Shown here: positions 5,713 through 20,000 of the stretch, piece by piece | How positions within the stretch are numbered: the stretch's first letter is position 1 | Layout of the letters: each line of letters starts with the position of its first letter | DNA from: an uncultured virus (IMG/VR IMGVR_UViG_3300031857_000030) | Lineage: Duplodnaviria > Heunggongvirae > Uroviricota > Caudoviricetes | Strand: one strand, 5' to 3' | Length of the DNA: 20,000 bases | IMG/VR virus record: IMGVR_UViG_3300031857_000030 | The notes under the pieces: generated by a model | Databases searched by the model: none | What the model was told of the DNA's origin: nothing | Seen by the model: the letters and a program-made list of their open reading frames with translations, nothing else | Made by a program: the position numbers and the translations under genes

Positions 5713-6096
5713 TCATAGGATGTTATTTATTTTATTATCTCTATTATAAGCAACAACTAAAGGATTTGTTTTTTTAAACTCCGCTATCTTTTCTTCTTCA
5801 GTTTTAGTTTTAATATCATAGTATCCTTTTACATTGACTATATTCCATGATTCAAATAACTTTTCAATCTCATCATCTATTTCACCTTCATTACCTGAAC
5901 AATAAAAGTCCATATAGTCCTCACCTAATTGTCTTATCCCAGAAACAAACCCACCAGAACTTCTCCAAGAAAAATCTATAACCTCATCATTAACATAATC
6001 ATACCAAACCAAGTTACAAAGATTTGCGTATATCTTCTGTGCAAAATCATAATCTTTTATCTTATCATATGATTCTAATCTTTCTTTAAATGTCAT
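5713..6096 (-). CDS. Conserved phage hypothetical protein with C-terminal tag (RDNKINNIL)
   Basis: FAQKIYANLCN...SWRSSGG...DYMDFYCSGNEG motifs; ATGA overlap with the upstream gene. Confidence 0.8.
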   Translation of the reverse strand: MTFKERLESYDKIKDYDFAQKIYANLCNLVWYDYVNDEVIDFSWRSSGGFVSGIRQLGEDYMDFYCSGNEGEIDDEIEKLFESWNIVNVKGYYDIKTKTEEEKIAEFKKTNPLVVAYNRDNKINNIL

Positions 6097-6518
6097 AATA
6101 TCTTTTCTAATATGTTATCTCTTTTCCATCTTTTTATTTCATCAGACTTTCTATCATCATAATATTTTATACCTTCAATTAACTTTTGATTTTTTATACT
6201 ACCTAACCAATCAACAATAATATGGTCATTGGTCCAATCACTAACCATTAATCGACTTCTAAGCTGAACATATACTTTGTATCTGGTATTCACTCTTTCA
6301 ATTGTAAGAACATTTACTTTATCTAATTTCCACCATTTAGGTATAAGTTTTTTAACTTCTCTACGAACTCTAAACCAAATAAATAGTTTGTGTATAAGTA
6401 ATGATTTTGTAAGGAATAAAAAAACCATTTCTAATACAAAGTAGGTGATAAGTAAAAACCCACCCCAACCGTGTAGTGAGATACCTATATTTGATCCGTG
6501 TTGATAAACATCTATCAT
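6093..6518 (-). CDS. Membrane-anchored hypothetical protein with C-terminal tag (RDNILEKIL)
   Basis: N-terminal hydrophobic segment; ATGA overlaps at both ends. Confidence 0.8.
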   Translation of the reverse strand: MIDVYQHGSNIGISLHGWGGFLLITYFVLEMVFLFLTKSLLIHKLFIWFRVRREVKKLIPKWWKLDKVNVLTIERVNTRYKVYVQLRSRLMVSDWTNDHIIVDWLGSIKNQKLIEGIKYYDDRKSDEIKRWKRDNILEKIL

Positions 6519-7203: not shown

Positions 7204-7274
7204 ATTGATTTTCTTTTTTTCTTTTGATACTTAAAATAAAAATAGAATACTATTTTTTGTAATAATCTTTTCAT
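7191..7274 (-). CDS. 27-aa basic/hydrophobic peptide
   Basis: Not in the ORF track. MKRLLQKIVFYFYFKYQKKKRKSIWEL*; begins at the ATGA overlap with 7271..7615 and bridges to the next gene. Confidence 0.55.
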   Translation of the reverse strand: MKRLLQKIVFYFYFKYQKKKRKSIWEL

Positions 7275-7615
7275 AGGACTAAGTCTAATTTAAATTGTCT
7301 AATATCCTCTGGTGTAAGTTTCATCTGTTCAATGTAAGCCTCGATATAATCAGAAACTCTACTTGGATTATTCTTCATAAAATCAATCCAATATCCATCA
7401 CCGTGTTTATATTGGCAATTTTGTTTAAATTCTTCTTTAGTGAATTTTTTTAGTTCTAGATTACTGTTAGGTCCCTGTATAACAGTCAATTTATCTCCTT
7501 CTACACGGATAATGACTTTCCAATTAGATAGCATTTCAGAGAAGATATCACCTGGTTTAAAATCCCCTGACTCAAACTTTTCATCGGTCTTATTTTTGAT
7601 TTCTTTATAATTCAT
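7271..7615 (-). CDS. Hypothetical protein with C-terminal tag (IRQFKLDLVL)
   Basis: 114-aa ORF with an SH3-like beta pattern, FKPGDIF...WKVIIRVEGDKLTV. Confidence 0.8.
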   Translation of the reverse strand: MNYKEIKNKTDEKFESGDFKPGDIFSEMLSNWKVIIRVEGDKLTVIQGPNSNLELKKFTKEEFKQNCQYKHGDGYWIDFMKNNPSRVSDYIEAYIEQMKLTPEDIRQFKLDLVL

Positions 7616-7754: not shown

Positions 7755-8684
7755 ATGAATATAGAAGAATTAGAGAAAAAGTTTCAACAAAAAATTGAAC
7801 AAGATATTAAGATTGAACCCAACGATTGGATGCCAGATGAATATCGTAAAACATTAGTTCGTCAAATATCACAACATGCTCATTCTGAAATTGTTGGAAT
7901 GCTTCCAGAAGCCAACTGGATTACGAGAGCTCCTTCACTGAGAAGGAAAGCTGTTCTTTTAGCTAAAGTTCAAGATGAAGCAGGTCACGGTCTTTATCTT
8001 TATAGTTCAGTAGAAACATTGGGAAGTGACAGAGAAAAGTTAATAGATGACTTACATATTGGAAAGGCTAAATACTCTTCTATCTTTAACTATCCTACAC
8101 TAACTTGGGCTGATATGGGTGCTATTGGTTGGCTTGTTGATGGAGCAGCTATTATGAATCAAGTTCCACTATGTAGATGTTCTTATGGACCTTATGCTAG
8201 ATCGATGGTTAGAATATGTAAAGAAGAATCATTTCATCAAAGACAGGGTTTTGAGATTATGACTAAGTTAGCAAACGGTAGTAGAGAACAAAAATTGATG
8301 GCTCAAGATGCTTTAGATAGATTTTGGTGGCCTTCACTTATGATGTTTGGTCCAAGTGATTCAGATTCAAAGCACACCGAACAATCTATTAAGTGGAAGA
8401 TTAAACGCCATACTAATGATGAATTAAGACAACAGTTTGTAGATGCCACGGTTCCACAAGCTAAGCTAATTGGATTAACGATTCCAGATAAAGAATTGAA
8501 ATGGAATGATGAAAGAGGACATTATGACTTTGGACAAATTGACTGGTCAGAATTCTGGGAAGTTGTTTCAGGAAATGGACCATGTAATAAGGAAAGAATA
8601 GATGCACGTAGAAAGGCAAAAGAAGATGGTCAATGGGTAAGAGAAGCAGCCATGGCTTTTGCTGAAAAAAGAAAGTCTAAATAA
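7755..8684 (+). CDS. paaA: 1,2-phenylacetyl-CoA epoxidase catalytic subunit A (di-iron, ferritin-like)
   Basis: Hallmark sequences [93 protein letters not shown]. Confidence 0.96.
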
Positions 8685-10800: not shown

Positions 10801-10810
10801 TATATATTAA
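10801..10810 (-). promoter_or_regulatory. TTAATATATA putative late promoter
   Basis: 21 nt upstream of ATG 10779, overlapping the stop codon of the upstream gene. Confidence 0.5.
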
Positions 10811-11415
10811 AATTTGTAATTAAAATATTCAATGTCTCTTTGATATAATTTTGAAACGTTTTCTATATCGATTTGATTATAACAATCACTGTAGTGTTTA
10901 TGTTCAAATTTATTTAAGTGATTTAATTCTAGTTTTATATTTAACATTTGTGATAAAATATTAAAATCATTACTTATATTTTCAAATCTTCCGATAAAAT
11001 CACATTGTATTTTTCCCAGTTTATCTGTAATATAATCCAGTTGATTAAATGAAATAGATTTTGGATAATCTATTGTTGATTGTAATTCTAAGGGATTCTT
11101 CTCAATTACTATATCGGTCAATTCTAAAAACTCAGAAAAATTGGTTGAGTTTTCTAGAATATATTTACTCCAGTCATTATGAAATCCCTTTTTCAATATC
11201 ATATTATACCAAGATAGTAATCTATCAAATGGATTTCTAACAAAGCAAAATTTAAAATAATCAACATATTCACCATCATCTAATAAGTTAATCATAGAAT
11301 GTGAATGATATAGATTATTAGTTTCTGGTAAATTATAAAGTGCGTTGGTGATAGAAGTACCTGCTGTCTTTTGTATGTGAATAAAAATGAATTGGTATTT
11401 GTGATTTATTATCAT
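10807..11415 (-). CDS. Sulfotransferase family 2 protein
   Basis: 5'-PSB FIHIQKTAGTSI, 3'-PB FVRNPFDRLLSWY, DFIGRFENI..DF, and Y..DIE.FNY. Confidence 0.9.
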   Translation of the reverse strand: MIINHKYQFIFIHIQKTAGTSITNALYNLPETNNLYHSHSMINLLDDGEYVDYFKFCFVRNPFDRLLSWYNMILKKGFHNDWSKYILENSTNFSEFLELTDIVIEKNPLELQSTIDYPKSISFNQLDYITDKLGKIQCDFIGRFENISNDFNILSQMLNIKLELNHLNKFEHKHYSDCYNQIDIENVSKLYQRDIEYFNYKF

Positions 11416-12056
11416 ATTTTATTTAAAATTTTGTAGTATAAGTTATAATCATCACTGTGATAATTTTTAATCTTATCTAAAAGATTTGGTTCTATATCGT
11501 AAATATTATTTGATTTTTCACTATTTTGATTTTCAGTGTATTCAATAAAATTCATATTTAATAATTCTGATATTTTTAGTAAGTCTTCTTTATATCTTTC
11601 TACTATACCAATAAAAAAATAATCTTCTACCACAAAGTTATAAAAGAATCTTTGATAGAAATTTCTAACTTTTGGTAGAAAAACAAAATCCTCGAATGAT
11701 AGATTATTATCAACTAAGAATTTACCAATTTCATTTGTTTTCGAGTCTCTAATTAAGTGTAAGTAATGTGAGTATAATCTTTGAGATGGTTCTCTCAACC
11801 AAGTTATAAACTTCCAATCTAAGTCATAAAGTTTTTTATATCTTATTGGAAGAATATGACCTGATATACAGTTTATAGATTTGTAATTATTTACAATTAA
11901 ATTTCTATTGAAGTCATCAAACTCTGATATTAATTCATTTGTATCTCTTAATATTTTATGTCCATAGTCATAAGACAAGTTTTTATAATTTTTTTCTAAA
12001 GACTTTCTAAATGAAGTTCCTGCTGTTTTGGGAATATGTATGTTAATCAATTTCAT
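11412..12056 (-). CDS. Sulfotransferase family protein
   Basis: IHIPKTAGTSF, ISGH, TWLREPSQRLYSHY, FIGIVERY, D..LY. Confidence 0.88.
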   Translation of the reverse strand: MKLINIHIPKTAGTSFRKSLEKNYKNLSYDYGHKILRDTNELISEFDDFNRNLIVNNYKSINCISGHILPIRYKKLYDLDWKFITWLREPSQRLYSHYLHLIRDSKTNEIGKFLVDNNLSFEDFVFLPKVRNFYQRFFYNFVVEDYFFIGIVERYKEDLLKISELLNMNFIEYTENQNSEKSNNIYDIEPNLLDKIKNYHSDDYNLYYKILNKI

Positions 12057-12600
12057 AATAGTCTTTTATTCTTTTAATTTGTATTTCAGATGCTTCTATA
12101 TCATCTACAAATGACATCTCATGAAAATTTGATAATCCATTTATTCCTAAATAGTCTTCAATTTTTTTAATATCAAAAAAATTGATTATTTCTAACCTAT
12201 CACTTATGCAACCAGTCTCATCGATTAAGAATTCTTTGTTGGAAAGATTATGAAAGTCAAACATTAATGAATTATCTTTATTGAGGAATAAGTCTAAAAA
12301 TCCGTCAAAGTTATTAAATTTAGAAGATATATCTGGTCTCATATTCTTTACATACTTATACTCTGAGATAGTTCTATCAACTTCATTTCTTACTACTGTA
12401 AATACTTTATTGGTAATCAAATTAAGTTCATTTAACTCACGATAAGTACAATGCTGCGGTGTGTGGCCATTTATAAAAATAGAACCAGTTGATGTAAAGA
12501 GACTCATTTTATAACCTTTGCTTTGTAAAAATCTTTCTATAGTTGTGCCACCACTTTTAGGAATGTGAATAAATGTTATTTCGTTATTGAATATTGGCAT
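12043..12600 (-). CDS. Sulfotransferase family 2 protein
   Basis: FIHIPKSGGTTIE, PQH.T, FTVVRNEVDRTISEY. Confidence 0.85.
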   Translation of the reverse strand: MPIFNNEITFIHIPKSGGTTIERFLQSKGYKMSLFTSTGSIFINGHTPQHCTYRELNELNLITNKVFTVVRNEVDRTISEYKYVKNMRPDISSKFNNFDGFLDLFLNKDNSLMFDFHNLSNKEFLIDETGCISDRLEIINFFDIKKIEDYLGINGLSNFHEMSFVDDIEASEIQIKRIKDYYEID

Positions 12601-13531
12601 TGTATTTATTATTTAAATAATATATTAAATTCCCTTTATTAGAATCTTTATTTGTTTCTGATAACATAGAATCTTCTTTGACTAGGTATCTACTTAATGA
12701 TTTGTTAATAAATCCAACTTTTTTGTTTAAGTATCCTAATCTTAGCCACAATTCAAAGTCTTCCCATCCTACGCCAAATTTACTTAAATTTGTATCATAC
12801 CCACCTACATCAATTAGTTCTTTTTTATTAAACATTGCCATAGCATCAATATAATTTCCAAATTTAAGAAGCTCATAATTGAAAGTTTTATTTGATATTT
12901 TTTTTATAAGTTCTCCTTCTTCATTAAAACAATCAATGACTCCATAACAAGCAACCAGGTTGTATTTTGTAATGTAATCCAGATGTTCCTGAAGGCAATT
13001 TTTATAAATTGTGTTATCAGCATCTAAAATAAAAACATATTCACCTGAACAGATTGATATACCTATGTTTCTTGAATCAATTAGTCCGGTGTTATTATAC
13101 TTTTCAATAAGTGTAATTTTATGATTTGTATTTAGAAAAGATCTTGATAATTTTAATGAGTCGTCGGTTGATTTATCATCTACTATAACTATTTCAACAT
13201 CTATATCATTTTCAATTACTGAATTTATTGCATCACAAATGAACTTATCGTAATTAAAAACAGTTATAATTACAGATATAATTATTTTTTTAGAATTATG
13301 ATTTTTTAAAATATTAAAATATTGTGAATGTGTAAATGTTTCAGGTTTTATTTTATTATCTAAGTTGATATTGTTATTTATGTTAAACTTTTTATAAAAC
13401 CTATTCTCTAAGTATCCATGATTTAAATAATGATTGATAGCATCTTTTTCCGTTTTTAAACCAGCATCTTTTAAATCTTGATAAAAATCTAAATAAAAAT
13501 TCCAATCAAAGTCTTTAGGTAATTTTTTCAT
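12584..13531 (-). CDS. Glycosyltransferase family 2 with N-terminal FDW.FY...Y.DL...HY..HG..E.R module
   Basis: ISVIITVFN, IVIVDDKSTD, NTGLIDSRN.GI, FILDADN (DxD), GGYD, WEDFELW. Confidence 0.9.
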   Translation of the reverse strand: MKKLPKDFDWNFYLDFYQDLKDAGLKTEKDAINHYLNHGYLENRFYKKFNINNNINLDNKIKPETFTHSQYFNILKNHNSKKIIISVIITVFNYDKFICDAINSVIENDIDVEIVIVDDKSTDDSLKLSRSFLNTNHKITLIEKYNNTGLIDSRNIGISICSGEYVFILDADNTIYKNCLQEHLDYITKYNLVACYGVIDCFNEEGELIKKISNKTFNYELLKFGNYIDAMAMFNKKELIDVGGYDTNLSKFGVGWEDFELWLRLGYLNKKVGFINKSLSRYLVKEDSMLSETNKDSNKGNLIYYLNNKYNANIQ

Positions 13532-14619
13532 TGTTTAAAGTCAAACCTATCAAAGTCTGATTGATAGTATTTTAGTATTTTTTCTTTTGTTTTAAGTTTT
13601 ATATTTATAGGTTCATACTTAATAAACGGTTTTTGATATTTTATATAATCAGTATTTGTTATTTCAAAAATATATTCTAAACTGTCTTCGAAGTCTTCTA
13701 TTTTTGATATCAAATTGACCTTATTTGTAGATACTATATCAGATTGTTTTTCTAAAAGATTATTATCCATTATATCATCAACAAAAGAATTAAAATCAGT
13801 ATTTTTTTCTTGTCTATATTTTGTAATTAATCTACTAACTGGATTATTAATGAATGTAAATATAAAATGTTTTTCATAGTCTTTAATCTTTTTTAAATCA
13901 TCTGTAATTATTACACTTTTAAACTTAGACAGATAATCCACAATTGAATTATCCACACCGGTATTTAAAAAAATACATTTACCGTTAAAGTCGTCTGGCC
14001 AACTTATATTCCAAAGTATTTCTTTTTCTAAGTAACTTAAACAAGTCAAAACTCTCTCCATAGAATGTGTCCAAGTTGATTCTTCTATATCACTACAGAG
14101 TTCTATTTCCATAAGATTATAGATATCCATTCTTTTATCATAAATCCATTTGAATAAAATGTCTTTTCTTATACAAAAAATTGTTCCTGCAATAAATCTT
14201 TTATCTGGGTATTCAAATCCTAACATTTGGCACAGTTTGAATATTTTATCACTTTTATAAAATGTTGGATCTTTATAAACCCAATTTTGAGAACCATAAA
14301 CTACTTTACCATCTGGATTAATAGGAAGTCCTTCAAATAGTTCTCTTCTCCACTTATGGTCTTTTTTAGTATGTAGTTTATAGATATATTTACAATTTTC
14401 TGGGACCTTATCTAAACTGAGTAAAAAAGGACCAATATCCATTCCCCTATTCTCAACTAATGATATTTCTAAATTTTTAATATTCTTATCATTAACATAT
14501 TCTAAAATAGTAACATTACAAGTAGTTGCAATTATTTTTTCAACAGGTAGCTCTAAGGTTTTATTTATGACTTCATCTACAAGTTCTGGATAAAATAAGT
14601 GTATTATAGCTACATTCAT
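13528..14619 (-). CDS. RgpF (rhamnan synthesis F)-like glycosyltransferase fused to a degenerate sulfotransferase-like domain
   Basis: N-half AIIHLFYPEL, VENRGMDIGPFL, KLHTKK, FIAGTIF, HSMER; C-half FTFINNPVSRLITKY, KIEDFEDSL, YYQSDFDRFDF. Confidence 0.78.
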   Translation of the reverse strand: MNVAIIHLFYPELVDEVINKTLELPVEKIIATTCNVTILEYVNDKNIKNLEISLVENRGMDIGPFLLSLDKVPENCKYIYKLHTKKDHKWRRELFEGLPINPDGKVVYGSQNWVYKDPTFYKSDKIFKLCQMLGFEYPDKRFIAGTIFCIRKDILFKWIYDKRMDIYNLMEIELCSDIEESTWTHSMERVLTCLSYLEKEILWNISWPDDFNGKCIFLNTGVDNSIVDYLSKFKSVIITDDLKKIKDYEKHFIFTFINNPVSRLITKYRQEKNTDFNSFVDDIMDNNLLEKQSDIVSTNKVNLISKIEDFEDSLEYIFEITNTDYIKYQKPFIKYEPINIKLKTKEKILKYYQSDFDRFDFKQ

Positions 14620-15146
14620 TTCTTTGGAATTTTTGATCTAAATTTAAGATTTTGCTTTGCTAAAGTTGGAACAATGGTATATATTTTATCAAATATCTTT
14701 GAGTAATAGTGGTCTATGTATCCGAATTCCTTAGTCATAAAAGATGAACTTACAAATTTATTAGCACCTGATATCGATATTATATAACAATGTGTTTGTA
14801 AAAACTTATCCGACTTTTTATAATACTCCGACTCCTCAGTTATATCTTCTGGGATTCCACCTATTAATATTATATCAAAATCCAATGTATTTATCAATTT
14901 ATCTAAAATGTCTTCTGGTATTTGATTTTCTATTAAACAATCATCTTCAAATACTAAGCAGTGTGTTTCGCCACTTTCTAAAAAGTCTTTTATAATTTCT
15001 AAATGACCTATTGAGTTTGATTCTCTTTCTGATGTAATTTCAGGTCCCCAAAATATCTTAGGAGAATAACCAAAATCTTTTAAATGACTTTTAGTAAATT
15101 CGAATCTTTCAATTGTTTTATTAGATGTGAGTAAGTAACTTATCAT
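14616..15146 (-). CDS. Glycosyltransferase family 25-like
   Basis: S..GH..II..F.......LVFEDD, DIILIG, THCYIISISGANK, IDHY, P.LAKQ. Confidence 0.78.
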   Translation of the reverse strand: MISYLLTSNKTIERFEFTKSHLKDFGYSPKIFWGPEITSERESNSIGHLEIIKDFLESGETHCLVFEDDCLIENQIPEDILDKLINTLDFDIILIGGIPEDITEESEYYKKSDKFLQTHCYIISISGANKFVSSSFMTKEFGYIDHYYSKIFDKIYTIVPTLAKQNLKFRSKIPKK

Positions 15147-17511: not shown

Positions 17512-17518
17512 AAATTTA

Positions 17519-17552
17519 GTTTCAATTTAAATGTATATATTAAAATTGAAAC
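17519..17552 (-). promoter_or_regulatory. TTAATATATA putative late promoter (17534-17543) enclosed by a perfect 10-bp inverted repeat
   Basis: GTTTCAATTT (17519-17528) and AAATTGAAAC (17543-17552) with a 14-nt loop, 7 nt from ATG 17511. Confidence 0.6.
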
Positions 17553-17560
17553 AAATATTT

Positions 17561-18022
17561 TCATATACCTAAATCTTTTAGTTTCATTTGTCTTAACCAA
17601 TCTTTTAAACCATACTTTTTTCTATTCATATTAAATCCTGACATAAAACCATCATGATTGAAATGGTATTTCATATTATCAATTAGTGACTCTATTTCTT
17701 TATCTAACTCTTCTTCGGTTTCTTTTTCGATAAACGGTCTATAAATATTATAAGTTATTGGTCTATCTCCGTTTTGGTGTATTTGATCTCCGCAAGTTAT
17801 CTCAATTCTCCAAAGGTGTCCAAATTCCCAATATCTAGTATCCATAGAACGTATAAGAAAGAAAAGTCCTTCGGTATCTTTTTCATCAGAATAAAAGAAA
17901 AGACAAGCACCACCCCAATCTGATTTAATCTTATCAAATGTATGAGATAAGTTATGACCGTTCAAATCGATACCTGGAAGTGAGTTAATAGTATCAACTA
18001 ATCGTTTATATAAATCTTTCAT
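17561..18022 (-). CDS. Hypothetical protein with C-terminal tag (LRQMKLKDLGI)
   Basis: 153-aa ORF, last gene of the ATGA-coupled array. Confidence 0.8.
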   Translation of the reverse strand: MKDLYKRLVDTINSLPGIDLNGHNLSHTFDKIKSDWGGACLFFYSDEKDTEGLFFLIRSMDTRYWEFGHLWRIEITCGDQIHQNGDRPITYNIYRPFIEKETEEELDKEIESLIDNMKYHFNHDGFMSGFNMNRKKYGLKDWLRQMKLKDLGI

Positions 18023-18228
18023 AATCCTAAATCATTTAATCTTTTATCACGCATTTCTTCAATAGTAATAAAATGTGTATCTAAAAACTCCCTGATATAA
18101 CCATCATCACATTTTATCTTGTACCAAGTTGCATTAAATTTTCTTTCAACTATTTCGGCAATATACTCCTTACCATTTGTAATATGGTAATCTTTAAGAT
18201 TAGTACCCTTTTTTAATTTAACAATCAT
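18019..18228 (-). CDS. Small SH3-like protein with C-terminal tag (MRDKRLNDLGL)
   Basis: ITNGKEY...WYKIKCDDG...F; similar to its two upstream neighbours. Confidence 0.8.
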   Translation of the reverse strand: MIVKLKKGTNLKDYHITNGKEYIAEIVERKFNATWYKIKCDDGYIREFLDTHFITIEEMRDKRLNDLGL

Positions 18229-18428
18229 ATACCTAATTCATTTAATTTATCTTGTCTTAATTGACTTACTATATTAAAATTCCAATAACAAAAAAGTGTG
18301 TTATCAAATCCACTTAGTTTATAATAAATTTGATTATGAACACATTCAACTCTTTCAACGAAATAGGTTTTACCTACTTCTAAAACTTTACCACCATTTG
18401 GTTCATTATTTCTACATACTACAAGCAT
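18225..18428 (-). CDS. Small SH3-like protein with C-terminal tag (LRQDKLNELGI)
   Basis: VVCRNN...LEVGKTYFV...YYKL...F. Confidence 0.8.
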   Translation of the reverse strand: MLVVCRNNEPNGGKVLEVGKTYFVERVECVHNQIYYKLSGFDNTLFCYWNFNIVSQLRQDKLNELGI

Positions 18429-18637
18429 AATTCATTTAGTTTTTCTTCTCTTATTTCATCTATTGTTTTAAAGTAAGACTTAGATAGGTTTGCCTCATAT
18501 CCCCCTCTCCAATCAATAGTATAGTAAGTATCATGTTCTTCTAATACCTCATACCACTGACCAATCGTTAACATATCGTATGCACTGAAAGAAGACCATT
18601 CACCACTATAATCATTAGTAACACAAATGACTTTCAT
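18419..18637 (-). CDS. Small SH3-like protein with C-terminal tag (IREEKLNELCL)
   Basis: KVICVTN...LTIGQWYEV...YYTI...YF. Confidence 0.8.
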   Translation of the reverse strand: MKVICVTNDYSGEWSSFSAYDMLTIGQWYEVLEEHDTYYTIDWRGGYEANLSKSYFKTIDEIREEKLNELCL

Positions 18638-18930
18638 TTTAATATCTTTTCTAATTTACTATCACGACATTCATACACCTTTATATCTTCATCTTTGAAG
18701 TCACCGTTTTGTAGTTTCATTTGGACTTTGATGTAATCTTCTGCTTCTTTTAAAGTATTTCGACTTACAGGTTCCCCATTCCAACTATCATAAGAAGAAT
18801 AAGTCCTTTCTCTACACCATCTCCAAACTGGTTCTTTTTTCCACCATACTTTTTTCTCATACATCACATAGTAATTATTAACTGGTTTATCACTTGAAAT
18901 GTATGTTTTCTTTACTACTTTATATCTCAT
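18634..18930 (-). CDS. Hypothetical protein with C-terminal tag (RDSKLEKILK)
   Basis: 98-aa ORF with ATGA overlaps. Confidence 0.8.
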   Translation of the reverse strand: MRYKVVKKTYISSDKPVNNYYVMYEKKVWWKKEPVWRWCRERTYSSYDSWNGEPVSRNTLKEAEDYIKVQMKLQNGDFKDEDIKVYECRDSKLEKILK

Positions 18931-19160
18931 ACAATACCTTTTAATTTAAATTCTCTTATATTATCAGTTCCTATTATTAGTTCATCTTCTGGGTATTCAA
19001 TACCATCAGAAAGAACATAAAACCTACCTAAAGATTTATTCTTAAATTCTTTTGTTTCTAAATCATCAAAGCTAAAACTGGAAGTAACCTGTGATTTCAT
19101 CCAGTTTTCTTTTATATCTAAAATCTGACCGGTTTCTTTTATAAGTGCTTTTTCTTTCAT
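18927..19160 (-). CDS. Hypothetical protein with C-terminal tag (IREFKLKGIV)
   Basis: 77-aa ORF with ATGA overlaps. Confidence 0.8.
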   Translation of the reverse strand: MKEKALIKETGQILDIKENWMKSQVTSSFSFDDLETKEFKNKSLGRFYVLSDGIEYPEDELIIGTDNIREFKLKGIV

Positions 19161-19501
19161 AGTATTTTGTTTATTTTATTATCTCTTAAAAAGGATTTAA
19201 AAGCTAACTTAAATTGTTCCTGTGAAGTTATTGTTGTGATAATCATATTCTTTACTCCTTCTTTTCCTATTTGGTAGACCAATTCGCTATATTGCTCATA
19301 AAGATTAGTTAGGTTAATTTGCAACTTACCATACTCAAAAGTAAGTTTATCGTTTTCTAATACCATATGATTATAAAGAAAAGAGAGTTCAATCATTTTA
19401 TCTAATTGTTCTTTACTAAACCCATGAGCATTATTACCAGCTAATATCCAGTCTAAGTTATCTTTTATAAAAAGATCTGTATCATCTAAAAAATGTTTCA
19501 T
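19157..19501 (-). CDS. Hypothetical protein with C-terminal tag (LRDNKINKIL)
   Basis: Start moved from TTG 19534 to ATG 19501 (MKHFLDD), which forms the ATGA overlap with an upstream tag remnant. Confidence 0.75.
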   Translation of the reverse strand: MKHFLDDTDLFIKDNLDWILAGNNAHGFSKEQLDKMIELSFLYNHMVLENDKLTFEYGKLQINLTNLYEQYSELVYQIGKEGVKNMIITTITSQEQFKLAFKSFLRDNKINKIL

Positions 19502-19594
19502 ATTCCTAGTTCTTTTAATTTCTTTTCTCTCCAATCATCCTCTTAAGTCTAATTGTAGGTGACCTATTGCTGTTTTTAATTCTTCTACATTCAT
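19498..19594 (-). pseudogene. Out-of-frame gene remnant: MNVEELKTAIGHLQLDLRG* joined to DDWREKKLKELGI*
   Basis: ATG 19594 opens 19 codons. A perfect C-terminal tag follows in the +1 frame with no start of its own. Confidence 0.65.
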
Positions 19595-19599
19595 AACCA

Positions 19600-19607
19600 C
19601 AAATATA
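19600..19607 (-). promoter_or_regulatory. Bacteroidota sigmaA -7 element TATATTTG
   Basis: TAnnTTTG just downstream of a terminator and 5 nt before ATG 19594; heads the tagged array. Confidence 0.65.
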
Positions 19608-19624
19608 ACAATTATATTTAAAAT

Positions 19625-19656
19625 AAAAAAACCTCACTGATTATTCAGTGAGGTTT
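19625..19656 (-). terminator. Intrinsic terminator after the SPFH gene
   Basis: AAACCTCACTGA-ttat-TCAGTGAGGTTT, ending in a T7 tract on the minus strand. Confidence 0.88.
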
Positions 19657-19675: not shown

Positions 19676-20000
19676 TTACTTAATGTTTAAGAATGTTCCA
19701 CTTGAGCCAGCAATTGTAGTTGGAAGTTTCCCATCCCACGCATTTGCTTTCAAGTATTCGATGTATAGTGGAGACAACTCAGTTTGTTTAATTCTAATAG
19801 CTTTTGCTGCTGCTTGTGCGTTGATAATAGTTTCTGCACTATCTGCTCGAGCGACTGCTACTTTTCTTTCACCATCTGCTTTAGCTGCGATTGCTTGTTG
19901 ACGAGAAGCTTCAGCTTGTTGAATAGCTTTTGTTTTAGCGACAATAGATTCTTGAAGAGCCTCTGGTGGTGTGATATTAGTTCTTAACTGAGAAACATCA
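19676..20000 (-). CDS. SPFH/Band 7/prohibitin-family protein, C-terminal part (5' end outside window)
   Basis: Not in the ORF track. ...DVSQLRTNITPPEALQESIVAKTKAIQQAEASRQQAIAAKADGERKVAVARADSAE...LSPLYIEYLKANAWDGKLPTTIAGSSGTFLNIK*; Ala/Glu-rich coiled coil and WDGKLP signature. Confidence 0.88.
   Translation of the reverse strand, partial: DVSQLRTNITPPEALQESIVAKTKAIQQAEASRQQAIAAKADGERKVAVARADSAETIINAQAAAKAIRIKQTELSPLYIEYLKANAWDGKLPTTIAGSSGTFLNIK

Follow-up and report, generated by a model that had tools for sequence, protein, structure and literature searches.

The 20,000-base stretch analysed here (the window) forms the end of G000, the 139,941-base virus record IMGVR_UViG_3300031857_000030 (GC content 0.295, ~44% complete), and contains an array of seven consecutive minus-strand genes (17561–19501) whose small proteins all finish on the same short peptide, hereafter the tag. 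A first-pass annotation had listed these seven C-terminal strings, all of which were confirmed, and had treated the tag as a feature of the array. It is instead genome-wide: about one protein in eight of G000 carries it (28/217 genes), and three further genes of the window end in the tag or a looser form of it. The motif is real and occurs far beyond chance. The overall reading that we tentatively prefer is of a portable peptide tag, likely a copy or mimic of helix 1 of the DUF6576 domain, that is predicted to dock small early proteins on a single host protein, the likeliest being an AAA+ protease such as ClpC.

A gene was counted as tagged when the pattern R..[KR][LI]..[LIV] lay within three residues of the protein end. 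This held for 7/7 array genes and for 21 of the 210 other G000 genes, against 0.17 if the internal frequency of 8 in 39,488 positions applied; shuffling the last 15 residues of the non-array genes 2,000 times gave a maximum of 4. Megaphage genomes for comparison were chosen by topoisomerase similarity, independently of the tag, the G000 enzyme being 79% identical to that of LR745206 (W01) and 76% to that of LR756502 (W02). The complete W01 genome (635 kb), which was read whole, carries the tag on 100 of its 995 genes, against 1.0 expected. Sampling found it on 17 of 284 genes in W03 (200 of 636 kb) and on 60 of 444 in W02 (240 of 642 kb, in regions that were non-random). Two other AT-rich megaphages can be considered untagged, with one match each among 243 sampled genes of W04 (160 of 462 kb) and 304 of W05 (200 of 735 kb), and bacterial loci gave one match in 790 open reading frames. 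A few strict matches, such as that in a 423-residue virion-type protein, are probably due to chance.

Aligned on their arginine (Arg0), 290 tags gave the logo [EI]-[LI]-R-[DE]-x-K-[LI]-[NK]-x-[LI]-[GL]-[IK], which is biased to the LGI subtype through the way in which loci were found. Position +1 is Asp or Glu in 80% of them, +2 is variable, and 215 of the 290 end exactly ten residues after Arg0. The last residues vary and extensions of 0–9 residues are common. Structural models predict a helix. Enrichment at protein ends is strong relative to both the internal rate and the shuffles, but some W01 copies are internal: a stricter pattern had 97 matches, of which 13 (a raw share) sit at least 10 residues ahead of the C-terminus, in some cases followed by another domain. 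Elsewhere in G000, two adjacent paralogues (L003:2045-3222) carry the tag, or a decayed version of it, in the middle of the protein and ahead of a helical domain, and an acyl-CoA dehydrogenase (L005:663-2426) matches the pattern at residue 392 within a conserved C-terminal motif, probably by chance.

Conservation was followed in 61 independent orthologue pairs, selected on the protein body alone. Arg0 was identical in 57 of 59 pairs and position +3 in 47 of 59, compared with 61% for the bodies, and the full pattern was matched by 45 of the 61 partners. At Arg0, 14 of the 57 identical residues showed a synonymous change, and codon usage there is that of the genome (AGA 77 times, 75.6 expected), as it is at Lys+3 and Leu+4; Ile+7 leans to ATA (41 against 29 expected, W01). 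A codon-free DNA pattern occurred in about 1,100 metagenome sequences, and 118 of the 126 complete frames ending in it were at least 50 codons long, including some on contigs at GC 0.50 (a second DNA pattern matched 2 loci and was left out of the analysis). On these comparisons, selection acts on the peptide, as had been proposed; the proposal gave DNA too small a part, tag DNA also being a crossover site and often supplying the next start codon. The latter had been noted for the array, where the last codon and stop form an ATGA overlap at five of six junctions, and again at the remnant described below. Genome-wide, the overlap is enriched yet remains a minority, at 10/28 tagged against 5/85 small untagged genes in G000 and 28/100 against 44/489 in W01.

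It could be argued from such observations that the conserved entity is DNA or mRNA, a recombination repeat combined with a translational-coupling end, and that the peptide is a by-product. Within the array the tag-coding ends are 78–83% alike, one crossover lies inside such an end, a deletion stub retains the tag end and its ATGA, and tagged genes show at least an approximately threefold excess of ATGA overlaps. However, codons for the fixed residues follow the genome, Arg0 accumulates synonymous changes, the motif persists on contigs with GC 0.50 and the ATGA overlap is missing from the majority of tagged genes. As the main role of the element, this explanation is largely refuted and we give it very little weight.

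The tag has been added onto bodies that lack it in other phages. A DUF6011-family protein carries the tag in one metagenome locus (L348) and a near-form in W01, while the three alphaproteobacterial-phage homologues (3/3 aligned) stop after the zinc finger without it. In a related locus, L022, the corresponding site after the SPFH gene is occupied by an array that is longer and differs in part. The body of array gene 1 matches one L022 gene and its last ~45 nucleotides match another, which places a crossover near 19200, in tag-coding DNA. The upstream remnant REKKLKELGI reported by the first-pass annotation is real but out of frame: W-R-E-K-K-L-K-E-L-G-I-stop occupies 19498-19533, and array gene 1 takes its start codon, ATG, from that stop. 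Its parent gene is intact in L022, where it encodes a tagged protein of 130 residues; the remnant, which starts at 19594, is by sequence comparison an internal deletion, in which 19 codons of a tagged gene are followed, out of frame, by the end of a second tagged gene. Public contigs in three sequencing runs carry this form without a difference, and a second haplotype departs from the window sequence at 19539. The DUF6011 case, the crossover and the deletion together suggest that DNA similarity helps to spread a tag that selection keeps as a peptide, which would occur by recombination between tag-coding gene ends.

Tagged proteins are short (median 98 residues) and nearly all lack an assigned family. 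After three of 139 W01 pattern matches were judged spurious, Pfam matched four of the remaining 136 (a Gp23 piece, a UVR motif and two marginal), two of 144 other tagged proteins (riboflavin kinase and BtpA) and one of 30 scanned from 139 metagenome tagged proteins. For the seven array proteins, Pfam and PHROG gave nothing above cut-off and ESM Atlas only unnamed viral clusters. Recognisable bodies include a tRNA-synthetase anticodon-binding domain in a small phage (G031, L295:7651-8025), two W01 derivatives of the major capsid protein (L093:7176-7907 and L095:15010-15237) and a piece of the ClpC M-domain, also in W01.

In W01, the TAnnTTTG element, which we take to be the Bacteroidota housekeeping-promoter consensus, heads 36 of 94 tagged units and 161 of 672 others (p = 0.005), while a TAATATATA-type motif heads 12 of the 94 tagged units against 91 of 125 virion-type units; we assume the two to be early and late signals, respectively. 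The TAATATATA-type motif lies upstream of a second shared signal, an N-terminal leader of the type M-K-x-[LI]-K-x-F-x-x-F, in 39/217 G000 and 136/995 W01 genes. Leader and tag coincide in two W01 proteins where 13.7 were expected. The promoter bias and this avoidance support the assignment of tagged proteins to an early, non-virion class, as had been anticipated from the TAnnTTTG element ahead of the array. A T4-like capsid-targeting sequence, which is N-terminal and found on late packaged proteins, was considered and rejected, as the tag is C-terminal and avoids the virion-type class.

The first-pass annotation missed a link to DUF6576. In two phage proteins a full tag leads without a break into this domain. 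They belong to a family of 47 members, in which Lys+3, Ile+7 and Leu+8 are invariant and position 0 is Arg or Lys; the predicted model has a helix at residues 25–49 that contains the tag, then a second at 56–64 (pLDDT >90), and a fold search with it gave no match at E ≤ 0.001. In hosts, DUF6576 (PF20216) is a rhomboid protease tail, present in 18/20 Bacteroidota genomes and 1/14 controls. The 52 distinct host tails read [RTQ]-Q-x-[RQE]-I-D-x-I-L-D in the register of the tag, two small, membrane-anchored host proteins made of a transmembrane (TM) segment and DUF6576 (L243, L244) read R-E-x-E-[IL]-[DN]-x-L-L, and, scored with the tag matrix, all 18 host helices rank among the highest 2% of the 162,574 windows from hosts. 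This comparison makes it likely that the tag is a clipped copy or mimic of DUF6576 helix 1, although the match, in register but weak, may fit descent and convergence alike. The L243 gene, from a Chryseobacterium genome, adjoins genes that by eye resemble ileS, a DksA/TraR protein gene and lspA.

The array proteins stop 0–2 residues past +8 and have no DUF6576 match; the Gly turn, S-L-[ST] cap and helix 2 occur only in the fused family. A split domain, with helix 2 supplied in trans, is not supported, as the search turned up no protein that has helix 2 of DUF6576 on its own. The best 120 of the longer DUF6576 matches were rhomboids or fragments, with nothing indicating a partner, and the tag profile gave 0 matches among PDB sequences at E ≤ 10. 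The UVR motif was rejected as a relative of the tag; it has L-R-D in common but is one residue out of register. DUF6576 itself is expanded in the phages: it occurs three times in G000 (once two genes from a rhomboid) and, in DUF6576-like form, about ten times in W01. At L001:7725-9384 of G000, a TM plus DUF6576 gene lies near a tail-less rhomboid gene, with a tagged and a short gene between them, and looks like a split host rhomboid-DUF6576. DUF6576-like modules also stand directly after the N-terminal virion-type leader (W01 L089:13378-14001, L089:8646-9155 and L094:120-569; W05 L137:7594-8595), an arrangement that suggests injected proteins exposing the domain.

Four related phages of 26–32 kb bear on the identity of the partner. 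G009 and G027 are rated 100% complete, G031 has terminal repeats and G020 is rated 81%; they hold one, four, four and two strict tags in G009, G027, G031 and G020, respectively, one of those in G031 probably by chance. None of the four encodes ClpC or DUF6576, which favours a reader of host origin, and no reader gene common to small and giant phages is evident. A 418-residue W01 protein without Pfam family (L094:2381-3637) has homologues in 26–32 kb phages. Among the giants, ClpC is encoded by W01, W02, W03 and 6/6 near-complete tagged IMG/VR genomes; tagged giants also encode UVR proteins, and W01–W03 carry ClpP. The W01–W03 ClpC proteins have no Clp_N domain, and the 12 loci read begin at the linker. 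The untagged W05 has a ClpC that keeps its N-domain, and the untagged W04 has no ClpC. A phage transfer-messenger RNA tag was considered as a source of the motif; ARAGORN found no such RNA at the 12 ClpC loci, 10 of which have flanks of only 1.5 kb. The N-domain-less ClpC with a UVR M-domain (W01 L104:3224-5329 and L151-L162) forms one clade of giants, W03 being divergent. In the host-type N-domain, glutamate of the T-E-H motif is invariant in the first repeat (E30-H31 in 37 Bacteroidota-type domains) and not in the second.

The loss of this domain from the giants' own ClpC makes the host ClpC N-domain our lead candidate. It is described as binding adaptors and phospho-arginine (PMC12583610), and SPO1 Gp53 as a phage adaptor-like ClpC ligand that needs an Arg-Leu pair (PMC6873191); by analogy, Arg followed by Asp or Glu in the tag could act as a phospho-arginine mimic. 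Rhomboid RHBDL4 is reported to recruit p97 through an Arg-rich helix (PMC5389986), and YqgP figures as an FtsH adaptor in the title of a reference in PMC12615303. Arg0, Lys+3 and the Leu/Ile face at +4, +7 and +8 probably bind one groove. That the groove belongs to a host protein has somewhat less than an even chance; an AAA+ protease recruited by the rhomboid tail is a rather doubtful choice, the ClpC N-domain specifically is unlikely and FtsH a little more so. The earlier idea of a docking tag remains the best reading, with support for a helical tag and with the partners named above as candidates.

In the preferred reading each variable body would grip its own target and the tag would carry that target to the protease or, alternatively, occupy the protease's adaptor site; the N-domain-less phage ClpC would be deaf to the tag. 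In the most elaborate form of this reading, which we regard as improbable in its entirety, giant and small phages of Bacteroidota clipped the helix, one that recruits the protease, from the host rhomboid tail and built at least 100 interchangeable adaptors with it, each of which would deliver a host target to the host ClpCP; new adaptors would arise by recombination in tag DNA. The capsid-protein pieces, ClpC M-domain piece, tRNA-synthetase anticodon domain and many unassigned folds would all be adaptor bodies.

Several observations weigh against docking on a host protease through a borrowed DUF6576 helix. The profile match between tag and host DUF6576 is weak (probability 10%, E 0.003, 14 columns). 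Host helices score −11 to 9 where the tag median is 21.8. Among windows of equal hydrophobic pattern their ranks start at the 83rd percentile, which leaves room for amphipathic helices having converged. Only 25% of host tails have Arg0, and the host residue at +1 is Gln rather than the acidic residue of most tags. W05 encodes DUF6576 and UVR proteins yet has no tags. In 19 Bacteroidota genomes the tag profile found nothing significant (best E 0.03), and no host gene was tagged; no paper in the open-access literature searched names DUF6576. Pfam matches are scarce, and of 545 tagged bodies only 5 resemble an untagged protein of much greater length, so that the gripping of targets by the bodies is a conjecture; the second figure also makes decoy fragments a minority. 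The TAnnTTTG bias is not significant in G000 (12/28 tagged against 48/151 other units, p = 0.28). Furthermore, the small phages are one family and three of them share a protein with W01, and in the ClpC phylogeny (FastTree, 50 rows) the 12 N-domain-less proteins form one clade, i.e., one event, with W03 an unplaced long branch.

The last points bear on a different hub, made by the phage: the N-domain-less ClpC, the phage DUF6576 proteins or another conserved phage protein, in which case the small phages would parasitise the giants. This ClpC is present in every near-complete tagged giant, W01–W03 have ClpP as well, DUF6576-like proteins are numerous in W01 and present in G000, and the small phages, as one family with a protein in common with W01 in three cases, could depend on a giant helper. 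Yet they encode their own head, tail and terminase-like genes, their overlap with the giants is limited to the W01-shared protein, methylases and a few others, with no candidate reader, and DUF6576 proteins reduced to helix 2 were not seen; we regard a phage hub as unlikely. Slightly less likely still is a degron: the tag would then shorten the life of early proteins, and whichever protein bears it would be the substrate and not an adaptor. The early, non-virion class, the common spacing of ten residues from Arg0 to the end and the phages' investment in Clp proteolysis would suit it. An ssrA-type or PDZ-read degron has fixed residues at a free C-terminus, whereas the tags have variable ends, extensions and internal copies, which disfavours reading from the free end, and in one family the tag is predicted to be the first helix of a folded domain.

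The helix might instead bind membrane or self-associate in the manner of SHOCT, so that early proteins would gather at a membrane or in a condensate and no protein would be needed to read the tag. Its amphipathic pattern, the membrane anchoring of host DUF6576 proteins, the amphipathic helix with which the tag plus DUF6576 family begins and the SPFH gene ahead of the array all lend themselves to this idea. One invariant Arg and a near-invariant Lys argue rather for a specific contact, aromatic residues make up 2.5% of the tags, whose hydrophobic moment has a median of 0.22 (raw values), no SHOCT match was found in G000 at E ≤ 1, and SHOCT is reported not to have oligomerised when tested (PMC3581485). 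This too is improbable, slightly more so than the degron. Binding to the sliding clamp or RNA polymerase, as by the tails of T4 gp43, gp55 and gp33, was the analogy first drawn for the tag and would explain its C-terminal position and hydrophobic end in phages whose relatives encode a T4-type topoisomerase and Gp23. As a matter of membership the analogy fails: the W01 PolB halves and both G000 sigma factors are untagged, and 0 of 136 tagged W01 proteins match a replication or transcription family. It can be given hardly any credence.

The host of G000 appears to belong to the Bacteroidota, to which its type IX secretion system signal proteins, TonB-dependent receptor and DUF6576 all point, together with the placement of the relatives' ClpC within that phylum. 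G000 sequence occurs in freshwater sequencing runs; there are no RNA datasets among the listed runs that contain it. W01 and W02 are placed in the Mar_Mega_1 paper (PMC9723777), whose main text contains neither 'C-terminal' nor 'motif'. The first-pass annotation knew of no description of the tag, and none was found in the open-access literature (a search that excluded supplements and the original huge-phage paper).

Table 1. Features of the array and other tag-bearing genes in the window.
Feature	Position	Strand	Description
Array gene 7	17561..18022	-	153 aa, no Pfam family; tag RQMKLKDLGI-stop at 17561-17593
Array gene 6	18019..18228	-	69 aa, small predicted beta domain and final helix 56-66; tag RDKRLNDLGL-stop at 18019-18051
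Array gene 5	18225..18428	-	67 aa; tag RQDKLNELGI-stop at 18225-18257
Array gene 4	18419..18637	-	72 aa; tag REEKLNELCL-stop at 18419-18451; orthologue in L022
Array gene 3	18634..18930	-	98 aa; tag RDSKLEKILK-stop at 18634-18666; L022 has an unrelated 88-aa gene instead
Array gene 2	18927..19160	-	77 aa; tag REFKLKGIV-stop at 18927-18956
Array gene 1	19157..19501	-	114 aa; tag RDNKINKIL-stop at 19157-19186
Deletion remnant	19498..19594	-	Initial 19 codons of a tagged gene (130 aa), followed by out-of-frame tag stub
TAnnTTTG element	19600..19607	-	5 nucleotides before remnant start
Terminator-like hairpin	19629..19656		12 pairs; between SPFH gene and array promoter
AT-rich inverted repeat	17516..17555		20 nucleotides; directly past last array gene, possible end of unit
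SPFH/Band 7 gene end	19676-20000	-	Directly upstream of array; same position in L022
Tagged gene outside array	5713..6096	-	127 aa, ends RDNKINNIL
Looser-tag gene outside array	6093..6518	-	141 aa, ends RDNILEKIL
Tagged gene outside array	7271..7615	-	114 aa, ends RQFKLDLVL; two homologues also tagged

For two of the array genes (Table 1), tags recur in homologues. For array gene 6, 25 homologues were found and, with three near-identical ones dropped, 22/22 aligned homologues had the tag; a homologue of array gene 7 in metagenome locus L329 is likewise tag-ended. A related-locus search seeded with array gene 6 found none. The array had been said to include three SH3-like paralogues. Without the tag, the mutual likeness of these three small proteins is weak (E 0.01, 0.06 and 0.89) and the SH3 fold is unproven, since the predicted model of array gene 6 (four strands and a final helix) has a mean pLDDT of 66 and gave no fold match at E ≤ 0.001. 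Elsewhere in the window are a phage-borne gene for the PaaA phenylacetyl-CoA oxygenase subunit (7755-8684, plus strand; Pfam E 2.5e-95), truncated to 48 codons in L022, and a block of sulfotransferase and glycosyltransferase genes (10807-15146, minus strand).

The significance of the tag is that one handle is common to 10–14% of the genes of these megaphages, almost all without assigned function, and finding its reader would give hundreds of unassigned proteins a common step at once. What is new here is the register shared with DUF6576 helix 1 and the phage family that fuses the full tag to the domain; neither the DUF6576 link nor the use of the tag by small phages had been seen in the first pass. 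The DUF6576 link offers a second, phage-free probe, which would also give a function to a near-universal Bacteroidota domain. If the proposed role is true, the tag would give a host protease a portable handle of ten residues, and targeted degradation in Bacteroidota could use it as a tool.

Among known systems, the tag works like a hub-docking helix but differs from each of the individual examples. The C-termini of T4 gp43, gp55 and gp33 bind the clamp, and in both cases a common C-terminal peptide would dock unrelated proteins on one hub; there the cargo is three replication and transcription proteins, here at least 100 small proteins without assigned function. F-box and PRANC-type adaptor libraries of eukaryotic viruses pair a variable body with a short, unvarying helix that serves as the handle for proteolytic machinery of the host. 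An adaptor library of tagged proteins would be the bacterial counterpart of these viral F-box libraries, by analogy only, as there is neither ubiquitin nor a sequence relation. The VCP-binding motif of p97 cofactors, including rhomboid RHBDL4, is described as having the consensus EhRRRRLxhh (PMC5389986); like the tag, it is a short basic helix on unrelated proteins, including a rhomboid tail, that meets one AAA+ N-domain, with the spacing E-h-R-x-x-[RK]-L-x-x-h. It differs in having four Arg in a row, where the 290 tags have predominantly Asp or Glu at +1 and a variable +2, and the CDC48_N domain was absent from 5/5 phage genomes and a Bacteroides control. The reported ligands of the ClpC N-domain, MecA, phospho-arginine and SPO1 Gp53 (PMC12583610, PMC6873191), involve Arg-centred recognition, and Gp53 is a small adaptor-like hijacker of ClpC with an Arg-Leu pair; these are single proteins, whereas the tag, by sequence a candidate ligand, is on about a tenth of the proteome. 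SHOCT (PF09851; PMC3581485) is, as described, another small helical module that ends many unrelated proteins and frequently accompanies SPFH domains, although it has two helices in about 30 residues. The tag is also not an ssrA-type degron or a full DUF6576, whose Gly-x-x-Ser-Leu turn and helix 2 (E-E-K-x-x-L) are absent from tags. With DUF6576, whose helix 1 is [IL]-D-x-I-L-D-K-I, it agrees in register at 0, +3, +4, +5, +7 and +8, and one phage family has the full tag as helix 1; Arg0 and Lys+3 are fixed in tags and merely frequent in host tails.

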